DNA of 64,000 bases from positions 173,724,001-173,788,000 of the forward strand of contig OZ024741.1 in the NCBI GenBank assembly GCA_964016885.1, written 5' to 3'. Source of the stretch: Eledone cirrhosa (Eukaryota). The notes under the pieces are model-generated. The model was given only the letters and a program-made list of their open reading frames with translations, did no database searches and was not told where the DNA came from. This document shows positions 6,855-59,387 of this stretch, in pieces (the first letter of the stretch is position 1; every line of letters starts with the position of its first letter). Position numbers and translations under genes: made by a program.

Positions 6855-7250
6855 ATCATCCTCATCATTTTACATCCATTTTCCACACTAGCATAGATTA
6901 GACAGGTTGTCCTGTTGTAGGTAATGCTAGGTCAGGTGACCATATCTTGCTCATACAGAACTGATTTTGTCTTGGTTTCTACAGCTGGATGCCCTTTCTA
7001 ACACCAACCTCATTTACAGTAAGTACTGGGTGCTTTTTGTCATGACACCTACATGACCACTGTACAGTGTGGGCTGGGTGCTTTTTGCTGTGATACCTAC
7101 ATGACCACTTTGCAGTGTGGTCTGGGTGATTTTTGTCATGACACCTGCACGACCACTTTACAGTGTGGTCTGGGTGCTTTTTGTCATGACACCTGCATGA
7201 CCACTATACAGTGTGGGCTGGGTGCTTTTTATCATGGCTCCTACACGAGT
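6855..7250 (-). mobile_element. inverted second copy of the RTE-tail repeat with a 48-bp minisatellite
   Basis: Reverse complement of 6300-6560. A 48-bp unit starts at 7026, 7074, 7122, 7170 and 7218. Confidence 0.75.
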
Positions 7251-9818: not shown

Positions 9819-10949
9819 CTCTAAAGTATTCTTTGCATACAGACCAAACATACATGAACCTATACAGGCTTATATAACAGACCCAAATGTGCCACCCACA
9901 TAAAAGTGTCATTCGGGATTAAGCAGATACATAATACCATAACGCTAACCAACACACCACAAAGGATGCTGAATGGAGTATTTAGTTGAATAAGTGGTCT
10001 TGTTAGTCTTTTAATTAGTAACATCTTATCTCTCTATATATTTTATGTATATATATATATATAGGCAATCAGTCACACTGACAACACCTAGCCCATAGGC
10101 CACCTCTGAATCAAATATTTTCTATATTTTCACAACTTGTATCCTCTCGGATTGTGTTTACAATTATTCCTTTATTGTGTAACTATTATGCAACATAGAC
10201 CTGATGTTGTCGCCAGGATTCTACTTAACTTGGCCACTGAAATATATATACTGTTTACAACAATAAAACTTTGAAGGAAATTCACCAGTCTGGCCTCATG
10301 TCATTTTACGGCGATATCCAATTTTAGCGGCCTAAATGCCGCTTACTTGCTGTAGTTGCTGCTTACTTCAATGTATGAGGCTATTCCAACAAATTTACAT
10401 TCCCCTTTTTTTAGCCGTTAAAAGAAATATAGATTTATTTATTGTTTTTTTTTTGCGATTTATTTGCCACTGGGGCATAGATTTCTTTATTTGCCCCTTT
10501 TTGTTTGTTTGTTTTTTTTCGATTTATTAGCCTTTTGGGGTCACACACACCCCCGTAGAAAGTGTGCGACCTTTCTGCCAGGGAGCACAGAGAGAGGGGG
10601 TGCTCCCTTCTTCTCTTACCTGTACAAGCCGATATAGAGAGATGGCCCACTTACACGGGCCATTATTGCTACTTTCACCCATCTTTCATGGAATTGGCTG
10701 GGACTGACTGCCTTTTTCTCCACCTTGATCCTTCTTTCGAAGTGGTATCGGAAGAAGAGGACCATTTGTTGGCCGGCGACATATCCCCACAGTTTCCTCG
10801 TTGCAAATGCATCTGGGACATTTCTTTTCCAAGGGGTTTCCGTCCCGGAATCCGTGTCTGTAGAGCGTTTCCCGAATGGGCAGGGCCCCTCGGTATAATA
10901 GTAAGTATTAATGGTTGTAATAAAAATGCAATCAAAATGTAATAAATAC

Positions 10950-11085
10950 CTTCACTGATTTCTTTCCTTATATTATCAACAGAAGTTGGTATGTCACCCA
11001 AAGTTCGCTTTGTATGTTCCCGAATAGCAGTGAATTTTGATAAAACTGTTTCTAATTCCTTCTCCACAGTAAGACAAATATCCAT
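10950..11085 (-). pseudogene. RMND5: captured first coding exon of RMND5 (Gid2, CTLH/GID E3 ligase RING subunit), left-arm copy
   Basis: MDICLTVEKELETVLSKFTAIREHTKRTLGDIPTSVDNIRKEISE aligns by eye, without gaps, to the recalled RMND5A N-terminus MDQCVTVERELEKVLHKF...R.L...EI. It ends at a GAAG|GTATTT donor after 136 nt. Confidence 0.75.
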
Positions 11086-11258
11086 GTGTAGTCCAAAAAG
11101 ATATAAATCTTTAAAAAAATTATAATAATTCTTTATTATTATTTTCTTTTTCTGTAAATAATTATTTTTCTATATATCTCAAACCCTGCCAAACACCACA
11201 TCTGTCCATCTGTAAATTTAAATGACTGTTCTTTCATACTTATCCTCTTCAACTACAC

Positions 11259-11394
11259 ATGGATATTTGTCTTACTGTGGAGAAGGGATTAGAAACAGTT
11301 TTATCAAAATTCACTGCTATTCGGGAACATACAAAGCGAACTTTGGGTGACATACCAACTTCTGTTGATAATATAAGGAAAGAAATCAGTGAAG
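11259..11394 (+). pseudogene. RMND5: captured first coding exon of RMND5, right-arm copy (E10G variant)
   Basis: Inverted duplicate of 10950-11085. ATG at 11259, GT donor at 11395, followed by ~55 nt of AT-rich intron-like sequence. Confidence 0.75.
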
Positions 11395-11448
11395 GTATTT
11401 ATTACATTTTGATTGCATTTTTATTACAACCATTAATACTTACTATTA

Positions 11449-11920
11449 TACCGAGGGGCCCTGCCCATTCGGGAAACGCTCTACAGACACGGATTCCGGG
11501 ACGGAAACCCCTTGGAAAAGAAATGTCCCAGATGCGTTTGCAACGAGGAAACTGTGGGGATATGTCGCCGGCCAACAAATGGTCCTCTTCTTCCGATACC
11601 ACTTCGAAAGAAGGATCAAGGTGGAGAAAAAGGCTCTCAGTCCCAGCCAATTCCATGAAAGATGGGTGAAAGTAGCAATAATGGCCCGTGTAAGTGGGCC
11701 ATCTCTCTATATCGGCTTGTACAGGTAAGAGAAGAAGGGAGCACCCCCTCTCTCTGTGCTCCCTGGCAGAAAGGTCGCACACTTTCTACGGGGGTGTGTG
11801 TGACCCCAAAAGGCTAATAAATCGAAAAAAAAACAAACAAACAAACAAAAAAGGGGCAAATAAAGAAATCTATGCCCCAGTGGCAAATAAATCGCAAAAA
11901 AAAAAAACAATAAATAAATC
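11449..11920 (+). mobile_element. Tx1/L1-clade LINE 3' end (zf-RVT region, C-terminus and A-rich tail) inside the fold-back arm; mirror copy at ~10430-10895
   Basis: Alternative frames read YRGALPIRETLYRHG...KKCPRC..NEETV and FFRYHFERRIKVEKKALSPSQFHERWVKVAIMARV, followed by AATAAA and A-runs. Confidence 0.65.
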
Positions 11921-12078
11921 TATATTTCTTTTAACAGCTAAAAAAAGGGGAATGTAAATTTGTTGGAATAGCCTCATACATTGAAGTAAGCAGCAACCAC
12001 AGCAAGTAAGCGGCATTTAGGCCGCTAAAATTGAATATCGCCCATTTTACTCAATAATCACACACACATATATCATTA

Positions 12079-14573: not shown

Positions 14574-19860
<5,287 letters not shown>

Positions 19861-23909: not shown

Positions 23910-24716
23910 ATGGCATCTCATTCTGTTCTACCTACGTACACGGACGACGTAAGGCTATGGTTCACCTAACTCGAAGCATTTTTCGAGGCGAACAGAATTG
24001 ACGAAGCACAACAAGGTCCTCTGGTCCTTAGTGCAATTCCGCCGGCACTTATCCCAGCGATTAAGGACCTGGTGTTAGAGACACCCACCGACGAGACGTA
24101 CAAGTCTCTGAAGGCTGAAATACTCAGCCGGACTGTACAGTCTGCAGAAAAAAGATTTAGGGCTCTGGTCCATCTGGAGCATATAGGTGATGGCACCCCA
24201 TCGAACCTCCTAAGGCGAATGAAGGACCTAACGGAGGGGTCGGTAGCGGAAACTGCCATGCTGAAGCAGTTGTTCTTCTCGCGCCTACCGACCAACGTAC
24301 AGGAAATTTTGGCCCCCATTAGGGATACTTGCACGGTGGATCAGCTTGCCGCCTCTGCGAACAAAGTTTTCGAAGTTACGGGTGCTGGAGGCAGCGAAGC
24401 CCTTGCCGCTGTTTCCCAACCAACTCAAGCCACACCTGGCCATGCCATCTGCGCGGCAGCTCCTGTAGACAGCTCAGCTATTATGGCGATGCAGAAGGCC
24501 ATTCAGGAACTCACCCTGGAGCTCCAGAAGATGAAGGCCTGGTGTGGTGCCCGTTCGCGCCCCCGCAGCCGCGGGAGATCGCAATCTTTTAGACGTCGTT
24601 CCAAGTCACCAGGTTCATCTTTATGCTGGTACCATGAGAGATTTCCCGAGAGCGCGAACCACTGCGTGCAACCTTGCTCGTTTCATAAGGCGGGGAACGC
24701 CAAAGAGGTCCGCTGA
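23910..24716 (+). pseudogene. gag: Gypsy gag (premature stop at 23967-23969)
   Basis: MASHSVLPTY..DVRLWFT*LEAFF...YKSLKAEIL...GDGTPSNLLRRM...LFFSRLP...CWYHERF..SANHCVQPCSF. Confidence 0.85.
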
Positions 24717-24749
24717 CGGAGGCAGTTGACCTCAACATAAAGCCACCAA

Positions 24750-27700
24750 ACTGCCATTTCTTCATTAAGGACCTTAGGTCGGGAAGAGGTTTCCTCGTGG
24801 ATACAGGAGCCTCCTGTAGTATTTTGCCGGTCCATTGCCTGAAAGATACCCCCGTAGAGTCATCCGTTACTCTGCATGCCGTTAACCACTCGTCTATCAA
24901 GATGTACGAGCAAATCTCGCTTCCTCTCAAATTCCTAAATCTTCGTAGGGATTTTAAGTAGATTTTTACGGTTGCCGATTTTCCATATCCTACCTTAGGA
25001 GTGGATTTCCTCCACAACTTCTCTTTGACTGTGGACGTCCGTGGCCAACGCCTGGTGGATGACATCACTGGTTTTTCAATTTATTGGCCGGAAAGCCAAT
25101 GCTCGAACTGTCAGCCCCATATTCTTCATCGCTGCCGCTGGAGACGCTTACCATTCGTTGTTAGGTTCTTTCCCGGAGCTCACCGATGGAAATTTTCGAG
25201 TCTCTAAGCCAACACACTCAACTGAACATTTCATTTCCACCACCGGTGCTCCAGTATTTTCGCGTCCACGCCGCTTACCGGCGGACAAATTAAAGGCAGC
25301 ACGGTCCGAGTTCGACCATATGCTGCAGCTGGGCATTATTCGCCCATCTACGAGTCCTTGGGCTTCACCGTTACACATGGTGCCCAAGACTTCCGGCGAC
25401 TGGAGACCCACTGGGGATTATAGAAGGTTAAATGCTATGACCGTCCCAGATAGGTATCCCATTTACATCTCCAGGATTTCTTATCTTCATTGCAGGAGTG
25501 TAAGATTTTCTCAAAACTAGATTTAGTGCGAGCCTACCACCAAATTCCGGTCAGGAAGGAGGATATTCCAAAAACGGCGATTACAACTCCTTTCGGATCC
25601 TTCGAATTTTTGACCATGCCTTTCGGACTCAGGAACGCCGCTAGCACTTTTCAGCGGTTCATAGACGAAATCACTCGTGGTCTGGACTTCGTTTATGCTT
25701 ACATAGACGATATTCTCGTCGCTAGTTCCTCTCCGGAAGAGCATATGCGCCACATGCATCTCTTATTTCGGCGACTTCAGGATTACCGCGTTCGTGTGAA
25801 TCCCGCAAAGTGTGTTTTCGGTTCCACTTCGCTAAATTTTTTAGGCCACCTCATCGACGCCGAAGGTATTAGGCCGCTCCCTCAGCGAATTCAAGCCATA
25901 CAGGATTTACCTCCGCCTACTACACTTCACCAGTCGCGTCACTTCTTAGGCCTAATCAATTTCTATAGGCGTTTCGTTCCTCATTGTGCTAATTTGTTAT
26001 CTTCCCTTACTGACATTTTGAAAAATCGTAACAAGAATGAGGATATTTCCTTGACGCAAGGACAGCTTCAAGACTTCCAGACTACCAAGACAGCACTCGC
26101 TAGTTCATCTTTGCTAGCCCACCCGGTACCAGAGACCAAGCTTTCGCTTTGTGTTGATGCATCTGATACCGCTGTGGGAGCAGTTTTACAGCAGTTCAAC
26201 ACTGGAAACCAACAACCTTTTGCATTTTTCTCGAGGAAGCTGAAACCAGCAGGAACGCGTTACAGCACGTTTGGGCGGGAATTATTAGCCATATATCTGT
26301 CGGTGAAACATTTCTTTCATATTCTTGAGGGGAGAAATTTTACTGTTTTAACCGACCACAAACCTCTGACCTTCGCTTTGAGGGCTAAAGCCGACAGATA
26401 TTCGCCCAGAGAGACAAGGCACCTGGATTACGTTTCGCAATTTACAATGATATCCAGCACATTACTGGCTCGCATAACATAGCTGCAGACGCATTGTCAC
26501 GTTTGCCAATCAGCTCCATCTCGTCATCCCAGGAGATCGACTTAGGTCGTTTAGCTGCAGACTAACCTGCACTCCAATCGTTGGATACTCTTTCTGCCGA
26601 ATTTGCGACTTGCATCTTCAAATATCTGCCCTTGTCTACCACGGACAGGCAAATTCTATGTGATGAATCTACGGATTCACCACGACCACTTGTTCCTGAG
26701 ACTCACCGTCGAATTGTGTTCCTTGCTTTGCACAACATTTCTCACCCAGGAATTTCTGCCACAGTAAAGCTTATAACGGCTAGATTTTTCTGGCCCAATA
26801 TGAGGCGATAAATTACTGTCTGGTGCCGTTCCTGCACACAGTGTCAGAGATCTAAAATCCACAGACACATCCAGACTCCGCTTGGTACTTTCAGTACACC
26901 TGATGCTCGGTTTCAGCACATACACATTGATATCGTTGGACCTTGGCCATTCAGCAGTGGATATTCGTACCTCTTGACCTGTATCGATCATTTTTAGCGA
27001 TGGCCTGAAGCCATCCCCTTACAAGATATAATTGCTGAGACTGTAGCGCGTGTCCCGGTATTAGGGTAGATTACCCGCTTTGGGGTACCAACTACAGTCA
27101 CCACAGACCGTGGTAGACAATTTGAGTCTCATCTTTTCTCTGAGCTCACAAAGATCATTGGCGCTCAACGGATTCGGACCACAGCCTATCATCCTGCTTC
27201 AAACGGAATGGTGGAACGATTCCACCGCCAATTAAAGGCCGCTCTTCGCGCCTATCCAGACTCTCAACGTTGGAGCGAGTACCTTCCTATTGTGTTGTTA
27301 GGAATTCGGTCATCAATAAAGGAGGACATTGGGTTCTCCCCGGCCGAATTACTGTATGGTGCTCTTCTAGCGTTGCCTGGGCAAATGCTTGCCCCGTTGA
27401 TCTTGCTTTCCAGGACCCTGTTTCCTACGTATCTCGTTTGCGCTCCTATTTTCAGGACTTACCGCCCATGAATACTAGGAAACAGAATGTTAAAGCTGCA
27501 GTCCCGAGGGATATTGCCTCGTGGACACATGTATTCGTCAGAAACGATGCGGTTTACTCCACCCCTCACACAACCGTACCCTGGACCCTACCGTGTGTTA
27601 GCACGTACTGACAAACATTTCACTGTAGACATTAAGGGGTCGAGAGAGACAATTTCGGTGGATAGACTAAAAAGGGCATACAATGACGCTCATACACCCG

Positions 27701-27840
27701 AGCCACAAATACCCCAATCTTTCTCTCTTGTGCATACACCTGCTCCTTCTGGCCCACCTTCACCTACATACAAGACCACGATCCGTTCCGGTCGAAGAGT
27801 CCACTGGCCCCAAAAAACTCTGCCAAACTGTTTTCATGTG
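24750..27840 (+). pseudogene. pol: Gypsy pol (PR-RT-RH-IN) with stops and frameshifts
   Basis: [94 protein letters not shown] and PYPGPY motifs. Confidence 0.9.
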
Positions 27841-28619
27841 AACTGGCCACTGGACCCTTATTTTTTTTTCTCTTTATTGTATTACCATGTACCTTTCGTT
27901 ACCATTTCATGCCTGTACCTTCTCGTTACCATTTCATACCTGTGCTGGGAGCCCATGCTTGTGGGTTCGCTACAGTTACCTTCGGGCTTTTCGCCTAGCG
28001 TCTGGAGGAGGGTACTGTAGCGGCCCCTCACGGCTCTGACTCAGCACATATGGGAGTTGCGTCCCTTTACGGCGGTCGTAACTCAGCACGTATAGGAGTT
28101 ACGTCTCTTTGCGACGGGCGCGACTCCCATTCGCAGATTCATGTATTAAATGGAGTTGCGTCCCCCTGTGGACTATATATTTGAGGACAATCAAAGCATA
28201 AGCCTCTCTCGCATCCTGAACTTCGAAGGGACAAGAACATCTGACACCTTGTCAAGAGATGACTCCTATCTTACTTCCTTCGCCCGCAAGAAGAAGAATA
28301 CCGGCAGCCTAAAGAAATACTTGAACACCTCCAAGAGAAGGTTTCTGTTCTTCTCTACACACTCCAGTCTGGGAGTTGTGATCAACTGAACATCTACATG
28401 TGGTAACAATTATTTATATTAATTTATTTGACTTCTGTGAAGTAAAACCATGTCACAACACTCACCTGCATTTATTGTCATTCTATATAATATAATATAT
28501 ATTCACTGATACTAATCTCCTAAAAACGGAAAGGAATACATGTATAGTTGTAGTGTGCCATGTGTGCTAATGTGGTATAATTATTTATATGTGGCAATGT
28601 GTGTAAATGTAGTATTTAA

Positions 28620-31278: not shown

Positions 31279-38056
<6,778 letters not shown>

Positions 38057-38415
38057 TGGGAGGAGGACGTTATAGTTCACTTGAAGCATCGTGTAATGAG
38101 GTATAAACGTTAGAATATGTGTAACAAGGCCAAGACAATGCAGGTATGAACATAGAAAAAAAGAATGCAATAGTGAAAGATATTGATGTGAATTCGTCTT
38201 TCACCTTGAATTTATTTAAATGTCCTTAATTTTCGAGATAATATCTCTTCTTCAGACGCTCGTTTGAGACCTTTACTTCCCTCCGAAGAAGAGATATTAT
38301 CTCGAAAATTAAGGACATTTAAATAAATTCAAGGTGAAAGACGAATTCACATCAATATCTTTCACTATTGCATTCTTTTTTTCTATGTCCATACCTGCAT
38401 TGTCTTGGCCTTATT
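38057..38415. mobile_element. fold-back non-coding island (PLE pLTR-like) with hammerhead-like core; further copies at 39532-39905 and 56951-57373
   Basis: Inverted arms of ~130-190 bp. Core CCGAAGA-a-GAGAT(att)ATCTC-GAAA. Confidence 0.65.
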
Positions 38416-38615
38416 NNNNNNNNNNNNNNNNNNNNNNNNNNNNNNNNNNNNNNNNNNNNNNNNNNNNNNNNNNNNNNNNNNNNNNNNNNNNNNNNNNNNN
38501 NNNNNNNNNNNNNNNNNNNNNNNNNNNNNNNNNNNNNNNNNNNNNNNNNNNNNNNNNNNNNNNNNNNNNNNNNNNNNNNNNNNNNNNNNNNNNNNNNNNN
38601 NNNNNNNNNNNNNNN
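38416..38615. other. assembly gap (200 N)
   Basis: Run of n. Confidence 1.
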
Positions 38616-40059: not shown

Positions 40060-41143
40060 CTAAGGCGGGTAAAATTCCCGAGATCCATGGACGAGTTCGC
40101 TCCAGCGGTCTCTGTCCCTCATTATCGCTGCCATATCCTGCATCTCCAACAGACCAGTGTCTGTCCTTAGGGCATCAACATATTTTAACCTTGGTCTTCC
40201 TCTTCTAGTGTGTCCATGTAGGGGCTCCCAAAGTAGCACTGAGTGCAATGTCAACTCTGGATGTCGGTGAGCATGTCCAGCCAACCTCAGTCTCCTCTGT
40301 GTCACTTTGAGCTGACTTTTGGGATGCTCCCATACAGCTCTGAGTTTTTCATCCTCAGTGTATACTGATTAATGTTCAGAGCCATCCTCAGCATTCTCGT
40401 GTAGCACCCATCCACCACCTGAGTGAGTCTCTTGGTCAGTATCCAAGTCTCAGACCCATACAGCAGCACAGACTCCACTACAGCAATGAAGAGGCGGATT
40501 TTCAGGTCTCTACGAAGGTCCGACTTCCACACCGATCTCAAGCTGTGACACGCCGCCCAGGCCTTGCTCTTCCTCTCAACCACATCATCTTCTGTATTCC
40601 CAATCTTTGCTCCCAAATACAGGAAGTCCTCAACCAATTCCGGCGGCTTCCCGCCTACATTAGTGATCCCCTCTGGCTTCTCAACATTCTCTACCAGATA
40701 TTTTGTTTTAGTCTCATTCATTCTCAGCCCCACACTCATCGACACAGTCTCAACCTCCCGCATCAAATCCTCTGCCTCCTTCACTGTATTTGTCACCAAA
40801 ACTATGTCGTCGGCAAATTCAGCATCCGATACCTTTTTCGCCCCAACTCTCCTGCTCTGAGCCGGTGCTACAGTAAAGCCAGAGTCCTGGTGTTTCTCCA
40901 GTGCAAGGCGCATACAATAGTCCACTACGATGATAAAAAGGTAGGGAGCCAATGTATCTCCCTGGAGCACTCCAGCCAGTATCTCAAAGAACTCTGTCAT
41001 CCCATCAGGTGTAATGACTTGGGCTTTGGTGTTGGTGTAGAGCAGTGATATCAGGTCCACTATCCTGTTGGGGATTCCATAAGCCTGTAAGATCTTCATC
41101 AGGCAGTAACGGTCCACAGAATCAAAGGCCTTCCTGCGGTCAT
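40060..41143 (-). mobile_element. 5'-truncated RTE-clade LINE embedded in (TA)n
   Basis: [59 protein letters not shown]; frameshift at ~40303. Confidence 0.9.
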
Positions 41144-44271
<3,128 letters not shown>

Positions 44272-44382
44272 GTATATATATATATATGCATATGTATATA
44301 TATGTATATATATATATATATATATACATAATATATACATATATATATATACATATATATATATACATATATATATATATGC

Positions 44383-44417
<35 letters not shown>

Positions 44418-44478
44418 CATATATAAAGATATATATATATATATATACATATATAAAGATATATATATATATATATGC

Positions 44479-44511
<33 letters not shown>

Positions 44512-44522
44512 CATATATAAAG

Positions 44523-44580
<58 letters not shown>

Positions 44581-47500
44581 CGATATTAATAAATGGAAAC
44601 TATATTTGTAAAACCATATTTATTTCATTATACATATTTCAGGGATACCAAATTAAATTATGGTATGCCTTCATCAGACAAAATACAATATATAACAGTT
44701 TTACAAATAAGCTTTGACGTACCCTATGAAAATGCAACCAATGTTTTTGGAAGTCATCCAGATAGTGATTTGTTTATATTACTTTAATAAGTCATAGTTT
44801 TAAGGACAATTAGAAAAAGACGGAGAGAAAGAAAAGACGTGGAGAAATATCGGAGAGAGAGAGAAATGCATGGAGGAAAAAAAAAAAAAAAAAAAAAAGA
44901 GATAAGTAAAGACAGGAGGAATGGAAGAAAGAAAAAGGAAGAAATAAGAAAAACAGAGGTAAGTAACAGAGAGATATTAAGTCAACAGACAGATAGAAAA
45001 ACTCAAGAGAGAGAAATGTTATATATAGAGAGAGGGAGATTATGAAAACTTTACGTCATGTCATGTTAAGTTGAGTTAACAATTCATATGAAATGAATAA
45101 TAAAAATATAAATATTAATATTCATGAATGGGACATAGATATATAATATGAGAAATTAAACATTGTTTAATAATGACTATATGTTTAGTTTAAACCTTGA
45201 GATCAATATACCAAAATTTGGGTTTAATCTCCAAAATGTACACATTGCTATAGGAGTCAGTATCTCAGGCAAAGACACACAAATACATATATATCTATAT
45301 ATAAACGCACGTCCTGAAAATAGAAATTATATTTACTCAAGTCAACAATATAGACATATAAAGCGCAGACGATTTCTCTTAATCACTGCTATACATTCCT
45401 TGTGTTATAAAAAGTTCACAGTATATATACACATAAATATATACGATTAACATTCATGACTTCATATATATGATAACCATTCATGCATTTAACATTTTGT
45501 TAAAATTATGCATATCTGCAATCCAAACTGCGTGGTTATGCAACATAACTTTTACCCACACATATACATACACACACACATATACATATACACCTATATA
45601 TGTATAAATAAATATCTGCGTGCGTCATCAGGCATCGCTCATGTATACATACAGACATATATACAATCATAAAAAACCTATAACACTTTTATATGCATGT
45701 TAATACACACATAGACATTTGTATAGAGATAATCAAATATCAATATATTACTAAGGATTATACTTTGGAAATATAATTATACCAATATAAATTTAAAATA
45801 CCAAAGGATTATATTTTGGAAATACAACTATATCAATATAGTCAAAAGGACAAACGAATTCTAGAAATGTCAAAGCATTAAATATCTTTAAAACACTATA
45901 GAGTATCTTAAGTTAAAATAATACGTTTCATATATTTAGTATAGAAAAATTATCCTACTTATATTTCAATCAAGATATTGAAAGGGTAGACTTATGAGAA
46001 TTATAAGAAGCTATCAGAATCAAAGCAAAACTAATAAAAATAAATAAAAATAAAATAAAATAAAAGTTAAATAAATATTATATCAATATAATTTAAAAAT
46101 TTAAAAATCTAAAAATTTAAAAAAATTTAAAAAAAACTTAAAAAAATTTTTAAAATTCAAAAATTTAAAAGAATTATAAAAACCCAAGGATTCTACAGAT
46201 ATCCTTATATTTAGTATAGAAATTTATCCTACGTATATTTTATTTAAGATATTGTAATTATAGACATTTTAAAGTAGTTTATTATATCTATGTTTATATT
46301 TAGGAAGAAAATTTAAAAAGAAAAAGGTGAAGGAATCTAATGATTTATCGACAGGTTTTATATATTAACTAAATTACTTAATTAATTATACTACATTTTA
46401 AATTTATATTTATATTTAAACGTTGAGTTCAATCTATGTCTGCAGCAACTGAATAAATTGTTCCTTAAATTAAGGGAATTTTTGGACTTTAATATAAAGA
46501 ATATTTCTTCAATACAAAGATCACAATTTTCTGAAGAGGAATTAAAAGGAGTAGCTTATGAAATAATATTCCAAGTCATCGAATATTTAACATTATCTCG
46601 TTTTAGGTCCCATAGTTTTAGGTCCCAAGATTTTTTGTTTGGATCTGTGAAAGAATTTTTATGATTATTGAAGCGAAATTTAAATCCAGTCGAGGTAGAA
46701 CCAACATAGTTAAATGAATTTAAATTAGTTTTAACATTACAATTGTACACTACATTTTTAGCTAAGCAGTTGTTATTTAACGGACAGTTAGATTTATTTC
46801 TACAGTTACAGTTATTCAATTGAATATTGCTTGGGTTATTATTGGTATTTTGGTTAGGTTTTAAATTTCTATTATTAATTCTATTAATATTTTGTGCTAA
46901 ATTTTTGGTGGACGAGTAAGTTAATTTTATAGTGTGTCTATTAAAAATTGAGTAATATTTATGTGTTCTAGGGAAGCGTTTGTCAAGAGCTTTAAAGAAT
47001 AGTTTAGCAATAGGGGTTTTAATATTTAGTGAGAAAGGGGGAGCAAACCATAATATGTTTCTAGTTCTATTTCTTTTTCGGCTTTTGGAATTATTGTAAT
47101 GTTTTCTATTATAGTTGCTAAAGTTGTTACCATAATTAAAATTGTTATTATTTTGGTTAGTTTGCTTATTATTATTATTATTATCAATGTATTTAATTTC
47201 ATTTCTATATCCAGCTCTACGTAACGCTTCGTTGTAATACTGCGCTTTTTCATCAAATATATTTTTATTAGATGAAATTCCTGAAATTCTTTCTTGAACA
47301 GAGTTCACTATAGTATTTTTAACAGATCTGGGGTGATTAGAGTTAAAATTAACATAATTCAAGTTCTCATTTAGTTTGTGAAATGGATAATGAAGACATG
47401 TGTTGAGATTTAGTGTTACGTCAAGAAAATTGACTATTTTATGGTTATTCTCTATTTCTACTTTTAGATTATGGTAATTAAAAAATTGTATAATTTGTTT

Positions 47501-48360
47501 TCTTTTCCTATTTAGTTCACAGCTATTATTTTGTATAAGTAAAAGCATGTCATCACGATATAAGCCTCCGGTTACACCTGGTATTTTTCTATGTAGCGAA
47601 TTAATTATAAATAGGCCCACAAGGTCAGTTACCTGAGCTGAGTCTGATGATCCCATAGTTATGTCGAAATTATTATTTCTATCTGCCCTAGTCCAGAGTT
47701 GGTTATTAAATTCTATCAATGTTTTCCTTGCTGATAATATAATGTGCATTTCATTGCTAGTTAGGTATGTATCTTTAAATGCGTAATTTAGTGCCTTATT
47801 CAGTAGATTAGGAGTGATAGATGAATAGTAGTTAGCAATATCCAGCTGAATAAACTTATTATTATAGTTATATTTAATTTCTTTAAACCAATCGATAACC
47901 TCGCTAGTCCCTTTCCATAATTTTAAGTAAGATAAATTAGGTAAGTTTTTAATTTGTTGTATTACCCTGTCTAGAATATTTTTGCTAAGTTTGCCCAGGT
48001 CAGATTTAGATGGTGCAATTAATCTGACTGGTAAATTCTAATTGTCCTTAACACTATGACTTATTAAAGTAATATAAAGAAATCACTATCCGGATGACTT
48101 CCAAAAACAATGGTTGCATTTTAATAGGGTACGTCAAAGCTTATTTGTAAAACTGTTATATATTGTATTTTGTCTGATGAAGGCATACCATAATTTAATT
48201 TGGTATCCCTGAAATATGTATAATGAAATAAATATGGTTTTATAAATATAGTTTCCATTTATTAATATCGTATATCTACTCCAAATACTTGTCGAGTGCT
48301 TTATATCAGTTATAAAAATATTTACTTGTTGTATCCCAACAATTTTAAATAGAACTTTTG
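44581..48360 (-). mobile_element. Penelope-like element, Naiad-like clade, 5'-truncated with inverted pseudo-LTR
   Basis: RT plus GIY-YIG ORF. The pLTR at 44581-44812 is mirrored by the inverted copy at 48040-48360. Hammerheads at 44621-44685(-) and 48166-48230(+). (TA)n on both flanks. Confidence 0.85.
46391..48040 (-). pseudogene. PLE RT-GIY-YIG polyprotein fragment (one TAA at 46556)
   Basis: RLIAPSKSDLGKLSK, IQLDIANYYSSI, FDITMGSSDSAQVTDLVG, LYRDD, FLDV, SNHP, CNCRNKSNCPLNNNC, VVY..YVGST..FKFRFNNH. After the stop it continues CDLCIEE...LNLRNNLFSCCRH. Confidence 0.85.
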
Positions 48361-57473: not shown

Positions 57474-59387
57474 TTGTTATACTTGGGGAGGGTCATATTT
57501 GTGTAATATTGCCAGAATTAATAACAGAACACACTCACTGTTTGGTTGATTCTCGCTTTTCGCTTCTGTGTCTTTTATATCGGTAACCTAATTTACTCGG
57601 CCCTCAATGTTGCCATTGGTATGGTGGGAAAGGAGACTTAAAGACCTCCTTAATGAGAGCTCTATAGACCTCATCATGTACTCTCGTTATGTAGACGATA
57701 TCAATATAGTTATAAGAACACCCCCACTAGAGAGCACTAACAAGTTTGATTTAGAACGTAGCACAATGGAAAGCATCCAGCAGATAGCTAATTCCATACA
57801 CCAGAGTATAACTGTAACTATCGGCTTCCCTTCCAAACACCCTAACAATAGACTACCTGTATTAGACACAGAACTCTGGATTAATACTATAGACGAGAGA
57901 GCCCAAATTCTCCACTCACACTATGCTAAACCCATGGCCTCCAAATACCTGATACTCAAAAACTCAGCAATTTCCAGTAGTGCTAAGTTTAATATTCTGA
58001 TCGCAGATTTGGTACGAGTGATGAAGAATGTGTCCCGCATGTGCGACCCAGCAGAAATGGAAAGACACATCCAACACTTCATCAACCGCATGCAGTTCTC
58101 TGGCTACAACCAAAGAGACAGAGTCAGAGTATACGAAGGAGCCATGGAGAAGTATAAGACCCTCATAGAACTGGACATGAAAGGAATTTGCCCGTTATAC
58201 AGGAGCAAATCATGGAATAGCATAGATAGGGCTAGACATAATATAGGGAAAGCCACCTCATGGTACGACAACCAGAGATATCAGAGTGTCATGTTTGTGG
58301 ACGCTACCCCTGGAGGGAAATTAGCTAACCAGTGTAGAAAGGCCCTGAGAAAGACCCACTTAAAAATTAAGGTGGTAGAAAAGCCAGGAACCACCATAAA
58401 ATCCCTGATCAGCAAAATCTACCCTTTTAAGAAAACCCACTGTAACAATAGGAAATGTATCATATGTAAGATAAATCCCCGGATAAACTGTAAAACTAGA
58501 AACGTAATCTATAGCATAAGATGTACAGAGGGTACTTGCAGAAACATGACAACAACATACATAGGAGAGACAGCTCGTAGCATAGGTGAAAGGATAGACC
58601 AACACTGAAGGGAACTAAAAGGACGAAAAAATTGGTCAGTACTATACGAACATGCCAGACAACAACATGACGGTAATATAGACAACATAGAAATTAGAAT
58701 AATATCTAAACATAGAAATGACCCAGCAGATAGGCAAATGAGAGAGGCCAGTGAAATAGAACTTAGAAGACCAAGACTAAACAGAAAGAATGAATGGAAT
58801 AACAACAACACCCAAACAAACAAACAACACTGACCTAAGAGAAGTATAAATAAGTAAATAAAATAAAATAAATAAATAAATAAATACATACACAAGCACA
58901 TAAACACACACTAGTCACCCAATCATGAACACACATCACACATCAAACAAAACACTATACACACACGCAAACGCATGCGCAAAGAAGACAAAATAAAATA
59001 AACAAACAGGCAAATAAATAAATAAATATATAGACAGACTGAATAAAAATGGCGTAGACATACAATACAACAGGAGGAAATAATAGCACCACTGACGATG
59101 TTGCAGATGTGCAACGAAAGATTTATGATAAACTATATATATGTGTTTGTGTCCATATTGTATCTGTATTATTTTTGACCGTCGGTCAGTCAATGGCAAC
59201 ATTGAGGACCGAGTAAATTAGATTACCGATATAAAAGACACAGAAGCGAAAAGCGAAAACCAACCAAACAGTGAGTGTGTTCTGTTATTAATTCTGGCAA
59301 TATTACACAAATATGACCGTCCCCAAGTATAACAATATATGTTTCGACACACGATTTCATATAAAAAACCTCGCAAAACACACACAT

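Follow-up and report, generated by a model that had tools for sequence, protein, structure and literature searches.

How does the first coding exon of a host gene come to lie twice, in mirror image, within a single mobile element? The question is posed by a palindromic fold-back element of 1733 bp at 10310-12042 of the window (the whole 64,000-nt stretch of Eledone cirrhosa DNA that was analysed; GenBank assembly GCA_964016885.1, contig OZ024741.1, positions 173,724,001 to 173,788,000). The element derives by deletion from a Merlin DNA transposon, and is palindromic and non-autonomous. The explanation that we favour as a whole, with a confidence slightly better than even, is that its ancestor carried a cassette of RMND5 and LINE sequence, likely LINE-delivered and functionless as protein. 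The rest of the window is repeat-rich. LTR-retrotransposon-like frames with frameshifts (matches to DUF7041, RVT_1 and RNase H) lie at 23970-28020, and pieces of non-LTR and Penelope-like reverse transcriptase frames lie between very long (AT)n arrays at 33590-35900, 40302-41100, 46556-48037 and 57592-58608; three such pieces scanned against Pfam at 1e-3 gave no match. The (AT)n arrays, of 2-5 kb, occupy 14574-19641, 31309-33504, 35986-38057 and 41145-44580, and an N gap is present near 38400-38600.

The element starts with GGCGATAT and ends with ATATCGCC; GGCGATAT is terminal at both ends, here and in most family copies. An exact 8-bp target-site duplication (TSD), CATTTTAC, flanks it at 10302-10309 and 12043-12050, and occurs once more in the 64-kb window, at 6866. 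The left and right arms are 97.6% identical with gaps counted, and differ by both substitutions and indels. The fold junction was placed exactly at 11092/11093, where sequence 7 nt upstream of one exon joins Merlin sequence upstream of the other exon with a 3-nt microhomology (AGT). The true arms are thus 10310-11092 and about 11252-12042 (about 783 and 791 bp), separated by a loop of 159 nt. The features are as follows.

10302..10309, + strand: left target-site duplication CATTTTAC (from the window sequence)
10310..12042, no strand: whole non-autonomous fold-back Merlin derivative, 1733 bp (from the window and family copies)
10310..10436, + strand: left Merlin terminal and subterminal sequence with GG end, common to transposase-coding copies
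10437..10532, - strand: A-rich stretch of repeated LINE 3'-terminus units, left arm
10533..10895, - strand: LINE ORF2 tail and 3' UTR, left arm, mirror of the right
10902..10949, - strand: first 48 nt of RMND5 intron 1, left arm
10950..11085, - strand: RMND5 first coding exon, left arm
11093..11104, + strand: remnant of Merlin sequence downstream of the transposase gene, beside the fold/deletion junction
11105..11258, + strand: RMND5 sequence upstream of the ATG (5' UTR), most of the loop
11259..11394, + strand: RMND5 first coding exon, right arm; 136 nt, 45 codons plus a phase-1 donor
11395..11442, + strand: first 48 nt of RMND5 intron 1, right arm (85 nt in older copies)
11449..11811, + strand: LINE ORF2 tail and 3' UTR with internal deletions, right arm
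11812..11915, + strand: A-rich stretch of repeated LINE 3'-terminus units (GTGGCAAATAAA), right arm
11916..12042, - strand: right Merlin terminal and subterminal sequence
12043..12050, + strand: right target-site duplication CATTTTAC (from the window sequence)

This structure agrees with the initial annotation, made from the window alone, in its 1733-bp unit of inverted arms with GG ends and an exact 8-bp TSD, and in its 136-nt ATG-to-GT exon in each arm (11259-11394 on the + strand, 11085-10950 on the - strand). The intron piece that it placed beside the exon is present at a length of 48 nt, and not the ~55 nt given there; the origin of the loop in the RMND5 5' UTR is an addition.

The RMND5 origin of the exon, proposed from its peptide, is borne out by the parent gene. 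The 45-aa peptide has human RMND5A, residues 1-42, as its best PDB match, which is weak alone (E = 0.036). Pfam gave no match for the 45-aa peptides or for the 92-aa LINE tail, a word-based protein search gave nine candidates and none at E<=0.01, and a full HMMER search returned 65 matches without names. The host gene was located in the same genome through its CTLH exons, and 200 kb around it were read. Three of its exons match RMND5A (E = 5e-4, 1e-12 and 1e-15), and window 11105-11442 aligns to G000:C5:79536166-79536519 at 88.7% over 354 nt. On the host side this interval takes in 170 nt before the ATG, then the coding exon of 136 nt, then 48 nt of intron 1; the parental locus that the initial annotation proposed to search for therefore exists. 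In sequencing run X4, a 1435-nt contig with six host-type letters reads into exon 2 exactly behind an AG acceptor, so the host gene is spliced as predicted. None of the listed runs holding element sequence is recorded as RNA, and this crossing of exon 1 into exon 2 is our reason for taking X4 as probably RNA-derived. X4 also contains the 5' UTR in host-type form, over its last 56 nt at least; together, the host alignment and the spliced contig identify the loop between the arms as RMND5 5' UTR. The host piece of the cassette begins about 110 nt downstream of a CCGGAAGT motif, which we take to be a promoter element, and it includes neither promoter-side nor downstream intron sequence.

To assign the element to a superfamily, PF12762 was used as query (447 candidates, 150 scored, 30 loci fetched), and two of the 30 loci carried the terminus of the element at 92-98% together with its cargo. 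A DNA search with that transposase recovered 14 long copies at 91-100%, plus a sister family at about 70% whose loci have no match to the arms of the element. Peptides from two family loci score 56.7 bits (L070) and 46.3 bits (L093) against DDE_Tnp_IS1595 (cut-off 27), and IDES, HTD and IEG blocks are visible in the transposase; PF12760 (Zn_Tnp_IS1595) reaches 17.8 bits, below its cut-off of 25.4. The cargo sits downstream of the transposase in transposase-coding copies with the same ends, and sequence behind the transposase runs on into the RMND5 piece in all 20 of its genome matches. The window copy itself has no transposase. The autonomous partner that had been proposed is found in the sense that transposase-coding copies share these ends; none of the 15 family loci read has a full-length frame, the longest being 286 aa, and a sister-family locus (L109) has a frame of 321 aa. 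Beside another sister-family Merlin, at about 50-1110 of locus L108, an intronless 351-aa frame on the opposite strand or adjoining it is a possible retrocopy; it resembles what is presumably a Brix-domain ribosome biogenesis protein.

MULEs have TSDs of 9 bp or more. A MULE or Pack-MULE was accordingly rejected on the 8-bp TSD and the cognate IS1595-type transposase, which settles the earlier choice of Merlin or MULE in favor of Merlin. Terminal GG, a TSD of 8 or 9 bp and a DDE_Tnp_IS1595 transposase are the reported Merlin features (PMC8101967, as far as its available text goes), and the family is Merlin by all three. Its arms, about 790 bp here and about 1.9 kb in locus L082, differ from the TIRs of 24-462 bp in that survey, a reported range and not a diagnostic one (PMC8101967). 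They exceed it because they are secondary fold-backs; one-sided copies keep short inverted ends.

Whole-genome pattern counts, in which one mismatch was allowed and backwards controls gave zero, show that the element belongs to a large family. A subterminal 25-mer has 539 matches, corresponding to about 270 elements; an exon 26-mer has 113, one of them the host; the fold junction of the window type has 42; and the sequence behind the transposase has 20. The exon lies at about 70 loci (~71 by hand count among the first 100 matches listed of the 113). A search with the terminus gave 566 candidates and one with the centre 115, of which 40 each were scored. Among 74 distinct elements with both ends inside the loci fetched, 64 have an 8-bp TSD (52 exact, 12 with one mismatch), one fits 9 bp and nine have no TSD. 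The 52 exact TSDs are 51 different sequences. Other copies of the terminus with different TSDs, which had been suggested as a check, are thus plentiful, and the distinct TSDs support transposition of the whole unit as one piece. The exon is present in 38 of the 74 elements and lost in 36. In three loci (L229, L230 and L105), family members are nested in each other, each with its own 8-bp TSD.

Whether this is a gene-capturing family, as had been suggested, was addressed through other cargo. Forty regions were fetched and 28 paired elements scored, and three of these hold foreign DNA, all of it nested repeats, so that the label is overstated. The three are a Penelope-like palindrome, a Helitron-like piece and a short repeat with direct repeats, the first two names being our assumption from translated motifs. 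At L230:2848-4827, a nested insertion of 1.94 kb has a palindromic structure of its own, with 899-bp arms (98%) that each contain a GIY-YIG-like frame, and we take it to be Penelope-like; the loop of a window-type copy at L249:1117-4074 is interrupted by a nested insertion of 2.96 kb, presumably Helitron-like, in which a helicase-like frame was seen. A second, independent capture is present in a family copy at L086:2145-4478 (G000:C1:87438144-87440477), which has an 8-bp TSD around the element. Its cargo of 1311 bp matches one locus, G000:C2:88292673-88293982 on a different chromosome, at 99.3% identity; the left joint has a 3-nt microhomology, and the donor locus lies 13 kb from a truncated family copy. 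Judged by its sequence, this cargo was captured at the DNA level and is non-coding as far as seen.

The second part of the cassette is a LINE, which we assume to be Tx1-type from its ORF2 likeness. One standalone relative (L153) scores 96.5 bits for RVT_1, and 27 bits for zf-RVT, just below the cut-off of 27.5. The LINE tail named in the initial annotation stands, at 76-82% identity between the arms and standalone relatives; the closest relatives, among 40 scored of 2635 candidates, match the LINE piece at 85-87% over 308 nt, and the LINE piece is somewhat more diverged from its relatives than the exon from the host. Some relatives lie in head-to-tail runs spaced at about 5.6-5.7 kb (G000:C1:393841203-393852376, C2:103449798-103466818 and C2:50657344-50668865) and terminate in GTCT or ATCT microsatellite tails. 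In older copies of the Merlin family (L097, L098 and L102), the cassette is longer: 391 host nt, 85 nt of them intron, are followed from the very next base by the LINE in the same sense, with about 5 nt of microhomology at the joint. The LINE part is 5'-truncated and extends to the 3' terminus of the standalone relatives. The arms in the window derive from this longer cassette by deletions.

The capture itself happened once, in a transposase-coding ancestor before the fold-back, and not in the window element. How the cassette reached that ancestor is the least settled part of our explanation, and we rate its arrival through RNA at even chances. In this first step, a LINE would have inserted just downstream of the Merlin transposase gene with about 390 nt of unspliced RMND5 RNA at its 5' side, acquired by a template switch or by read-through from an intronic LINE since lost. 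RNA delivery is favored because the two parts have the same sense, the LINE has a complete 3' end, the host piece is confined to the likely transcript, and the LINE is not followed by any further host intron in the element. A capture at the DNA level, initially proposed from the retained donor and intron, does not follow from these two features: both fit unspliced RNA equally well. In older copies the LINE is 5'-truncated, 3'-complete and in the same sense, and intron 1 of the host lacks it in this assembly. Capture through RNA is therefore at least as likely. Several observations are neutral or adverse. The microhomology at the joint would suit a switch between RNA templates as well as one between DNA templates. 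None of the 20 matches to the sequence behind the transposase is a cargo-free ancestor against which a TSD around the cassette could be demonstrated; the candidate, ATAAATCT, is AT-rich and weak and overlaps sequence resembling the LINE end, and a search of the family did not turn up the ancestor's original 5' end. Against the RNA route stand the greater divergence of the LINE, which could be older than the exon, and the cargo of L086, by which the Merlin family can copy host DNA in directly. The human mRNA/LINE-1 chimeras described elsewhere also differ, with joints mostly at exon junctions, as far as that account is available, and here in mid-intron (10.1101/2025.02.02.635956).

Some of these points also speak for the strongest alternative, which we consider possible at clearly less than even chances. 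An ordinary LINE insertion into Merlin would have been followed by a template switch during repair that copied the 5' region of RMND5 and replaced the 5' part of the LINE. The complete LINE 3' end would then need no chimeric RNA, the microhomology at the RMND5/LINE joint and the more diverged LINE would be accommodated, and L086 would supply a DNA-level capture within the same family; gap filling and fork switching have been proposed for animal Pack-TIRs (PMC8277862, in the text available). The LINE-only intermediate that such a course implies is, however, absent among the 20 matches, and the same-sense order and the transcript-confined host piece would both be coincidences. The route of the initial annotation, in which an RMND5 allele with a LINE in intron 1 was taken as one block of DNA, we judge improbable. 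It accounts for the retained donor and intron, and a 5'-truncated LINE with microhomology at its 5' joint has the look of an intronic insertion. On the other side, the check that had been suggested, whether the LINE lies in intron 1 of the parent, came out negative: intron 1 in the present assembly has no LINE at the position of the cassette, and the 200 kb around the host gene hold one distant LINE relative, about 90 kb upstream (43% at the amino acid level). Such a capture would also have had to stop exactly at the LINE 3' end.

After arrival, by whichever route, the course of the favored Merlin explanation is firmer. The second step, an inverted duplication of the cargo-bearing end, we consider quite probable. 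It would yield a pair of transposase genes placed head to head, with a cassette and a terminus behind each. It is read from locus L082, a full palindrome of 3828 bp (97.4%) that has its two transposase genes in this arrangement and is flanked by an 8-bp TSD. A 3.8-kb palindrome of this type is likely the precursor type, and the other forms, one-sided ones included, may be read as deletions of such a mirror. The third step, internal deletions that produced shorter forms including the 1.7-kb window form, is shown by shared junctions; the fourth, movement of the units as wholes, presumably with Merlin transposase in trans, by the distinct 8-bp TSDs. For these last two steps and the Merlin identity, taken jointly, we are close to certain. 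Very long inverted arms and variable internal deletions also mark the foldback elements (Drosophila FB, Galileo and Tetris; nematode Tm1). Those elements belong to other superfamilies and have arms of internal repeats, and the family described here differs in the host exon in its arms. Mirror formation seems common among Merlins in this genome, since three sister-family loci (L106, L109 and L112, at about 70% transposase DNA identity) are partial fold-backs with inverted copies of 200-490 bp, without RMND5. Four of five inverted Merlin match pairs fetched belong to other families; these pairs (L081, L083, L084 and L085), with transposases 1-2 kb apart, are possible full palindromes.

The arms appear to have been kept alike since. 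Twelve complete window-type elements from 29 loci were compared, 17 being dropped as truncated, interrupted or edge-cut. The mean distance between the arms of one element is 1.8%, versus 2.0-2.6% between elements, and no fixed left-right difference was found among the 12. Of 24 variants carried by exactly two arms, 10 occur in both arms of one element (4.3% expected, p = 3e-8), and two of these 10 belong to the window copy. Six transposase-bearing palindromes carry four to five nested deletions (129, 33, 95, 32 and 136 alignment columns), each in both arms. Polishing of the assembly could inflate point variants common to two arms, and not easily deletions shared across elements. The shared private variants and the nested deletions thus show, as a fifth step, that the arms are repeatedly copied onto each other, by a mechanism that we infer, and this copying keeps the mirror close.

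The exon as it stands looks like neutral baggage. Relative to the host, the right arm has seven amino-acid changes and the left arm six, with no silent change in either. Across 39 distinct exon sequences, 12 variants are silent, 37 replace an amino acid and 4 introduce a stop, which matches the share of silent sites (29 of 135, 21%), so that the exon evolves neutrally and is not kept as protein. A coding function was rejected on this spectrum and the stops. A function at the RNA level is very unlikely; on this reading, hairpin RNA made from the palindromes would regulate the host RMND5 in trans, and the mirrored exon would be retained for that reason. A transcript reading through the whole element is predicted to form a stem of about 785 bp, with 1600 of 1733 bases paired; 29 of 182 right-arm 21-mers match the host exactly, 13 of them wholly within the exon; and element-type contigs covering exon, intron-LINE joint and loop are present in X4, the same presumed RNA run that holds spliced host RMND5. 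These contigs, however, give neither strand nor level, and introns of host genes or DNA carry-over could be their source. The neutral divergence of the exon, its loss in 36 of 74 elements and its 113 matches against 539 for the terminus all stand against its being kept. We give as little credence to the most far-reaching version, in which a retrotransposon would have passed a fragment of host pre-mRNA to a DNA transposon that was mirrored and spread as dozens of self-repairing hairpins, with RMND5-matched dsRNA or small RNA tuning a conserved E3 ligase in trans.

That the palindrome is an artefact of assembly is a negligible possibility: no single contig in four sequencing runs spans the element, and at its left junction the run contigs reach just 27 nt inward, but chance or a one-off error is dismissed because 42 genome matches carry the same fold junction, copies have distinct 8-bp TSDs, the arms differ by substitutions and indels, and the loop consists of host 5' UTR, running on from one arm in precisely the way seen in transposase-coding copies. 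No empty-site allele was found, there being no joint across the element among those listed in four runs of one study.

The family works like a multicopy Pack-TIR: it holds host sequence with an identifiable parent, in several copies of the same chimeric structure with distinct TSDs. As to the level of capture, the joints of the RMND5 cassette fit RNA or DNA, and the L086 cargo points to DNA. Animal Pack-TIRs such as Pack-hAT-N8_XT and fly Ssk-FB4 likewise carry 5' sequence of a host gene with an identifiable parent in a TIR element with distinct TSDs; in the available text of that survey, captures by animal DNA transposons are mostly single copies, with few families of 3-4 copies, versus about 70 loci here (PMC8277862). 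Here, unlike in those elements, the cargo lies in a transposase-coding lineage, is joined to a LINE tail and recurs in mirror image in the two arms. Ssk-FB4 further differs in making a selected protein, the RMND5 exon being neutral (PMC8277862, same portion). In that portion, "Merlin" is absent from the list of 370 animal Pack-TIRs, appearing only as a column head in another table, and the row for the sea hare reads zero (PMC8277862). Plant Pack-MULEs, including the tandem-TIR PM-ZIBP, resemble the present family in that a gene fragment is amplified by a long-TIR element, and differ in superfamily and in holding the fragment between the TIRs instead of in both arms (PMC3310237, from the part available). 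The mRNA/LINE-1 chimeras have a gene's first exon in sense 5' of a LINE, and the parent gene lacks the LINE in 15 of 17; they consist mostly of spliced exons with near full-length LINE-1 and proven TSDs (10.1101/2025.02.02.635956, in the text available). The cassette shares with them cellular sequence 5' of a 3'-complete, 5'-truncated LINE in the same sense, and differs in its unspliced sequence, in its short LINE tail and in having landed in, and been amplified by, a DNA transposon. An abundance of Merlin is noted for Octopus bimaculoides (PMC8101967), and two studies that report Merlin in octopuses mention no cargo in the parts available (PMC8101967, PMC13282606); in the first, "captur" occurs once, in the reference list. 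The suggestion that the family is undescribed agrees with the literature searched, which yielded no description of a Merlin Pack-type element or of this family; an entry in Repbase or Dfam, outside that scope, is possible.

One capture has thus been carried by a whole Merlin family to about 70 loci, which makes it a well-traceable case of gene capture in an animal. Because a single genome still preserves the parent gene, LINE relatives, long-cargo copies, the full palindrome and deletion derivatives, the order of events is readable and testable. The family also provides a naturally occurring series in which copying between the arms of long palindromes can be measured. Mirrored as it is, the cargo could readily form a hairpin matching a conserved gene, through which silencing of a parent by captured fragments becomes testable in animals. 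A relay from retrotransposon to DNA transposon may be a route by which gene fragments spread.
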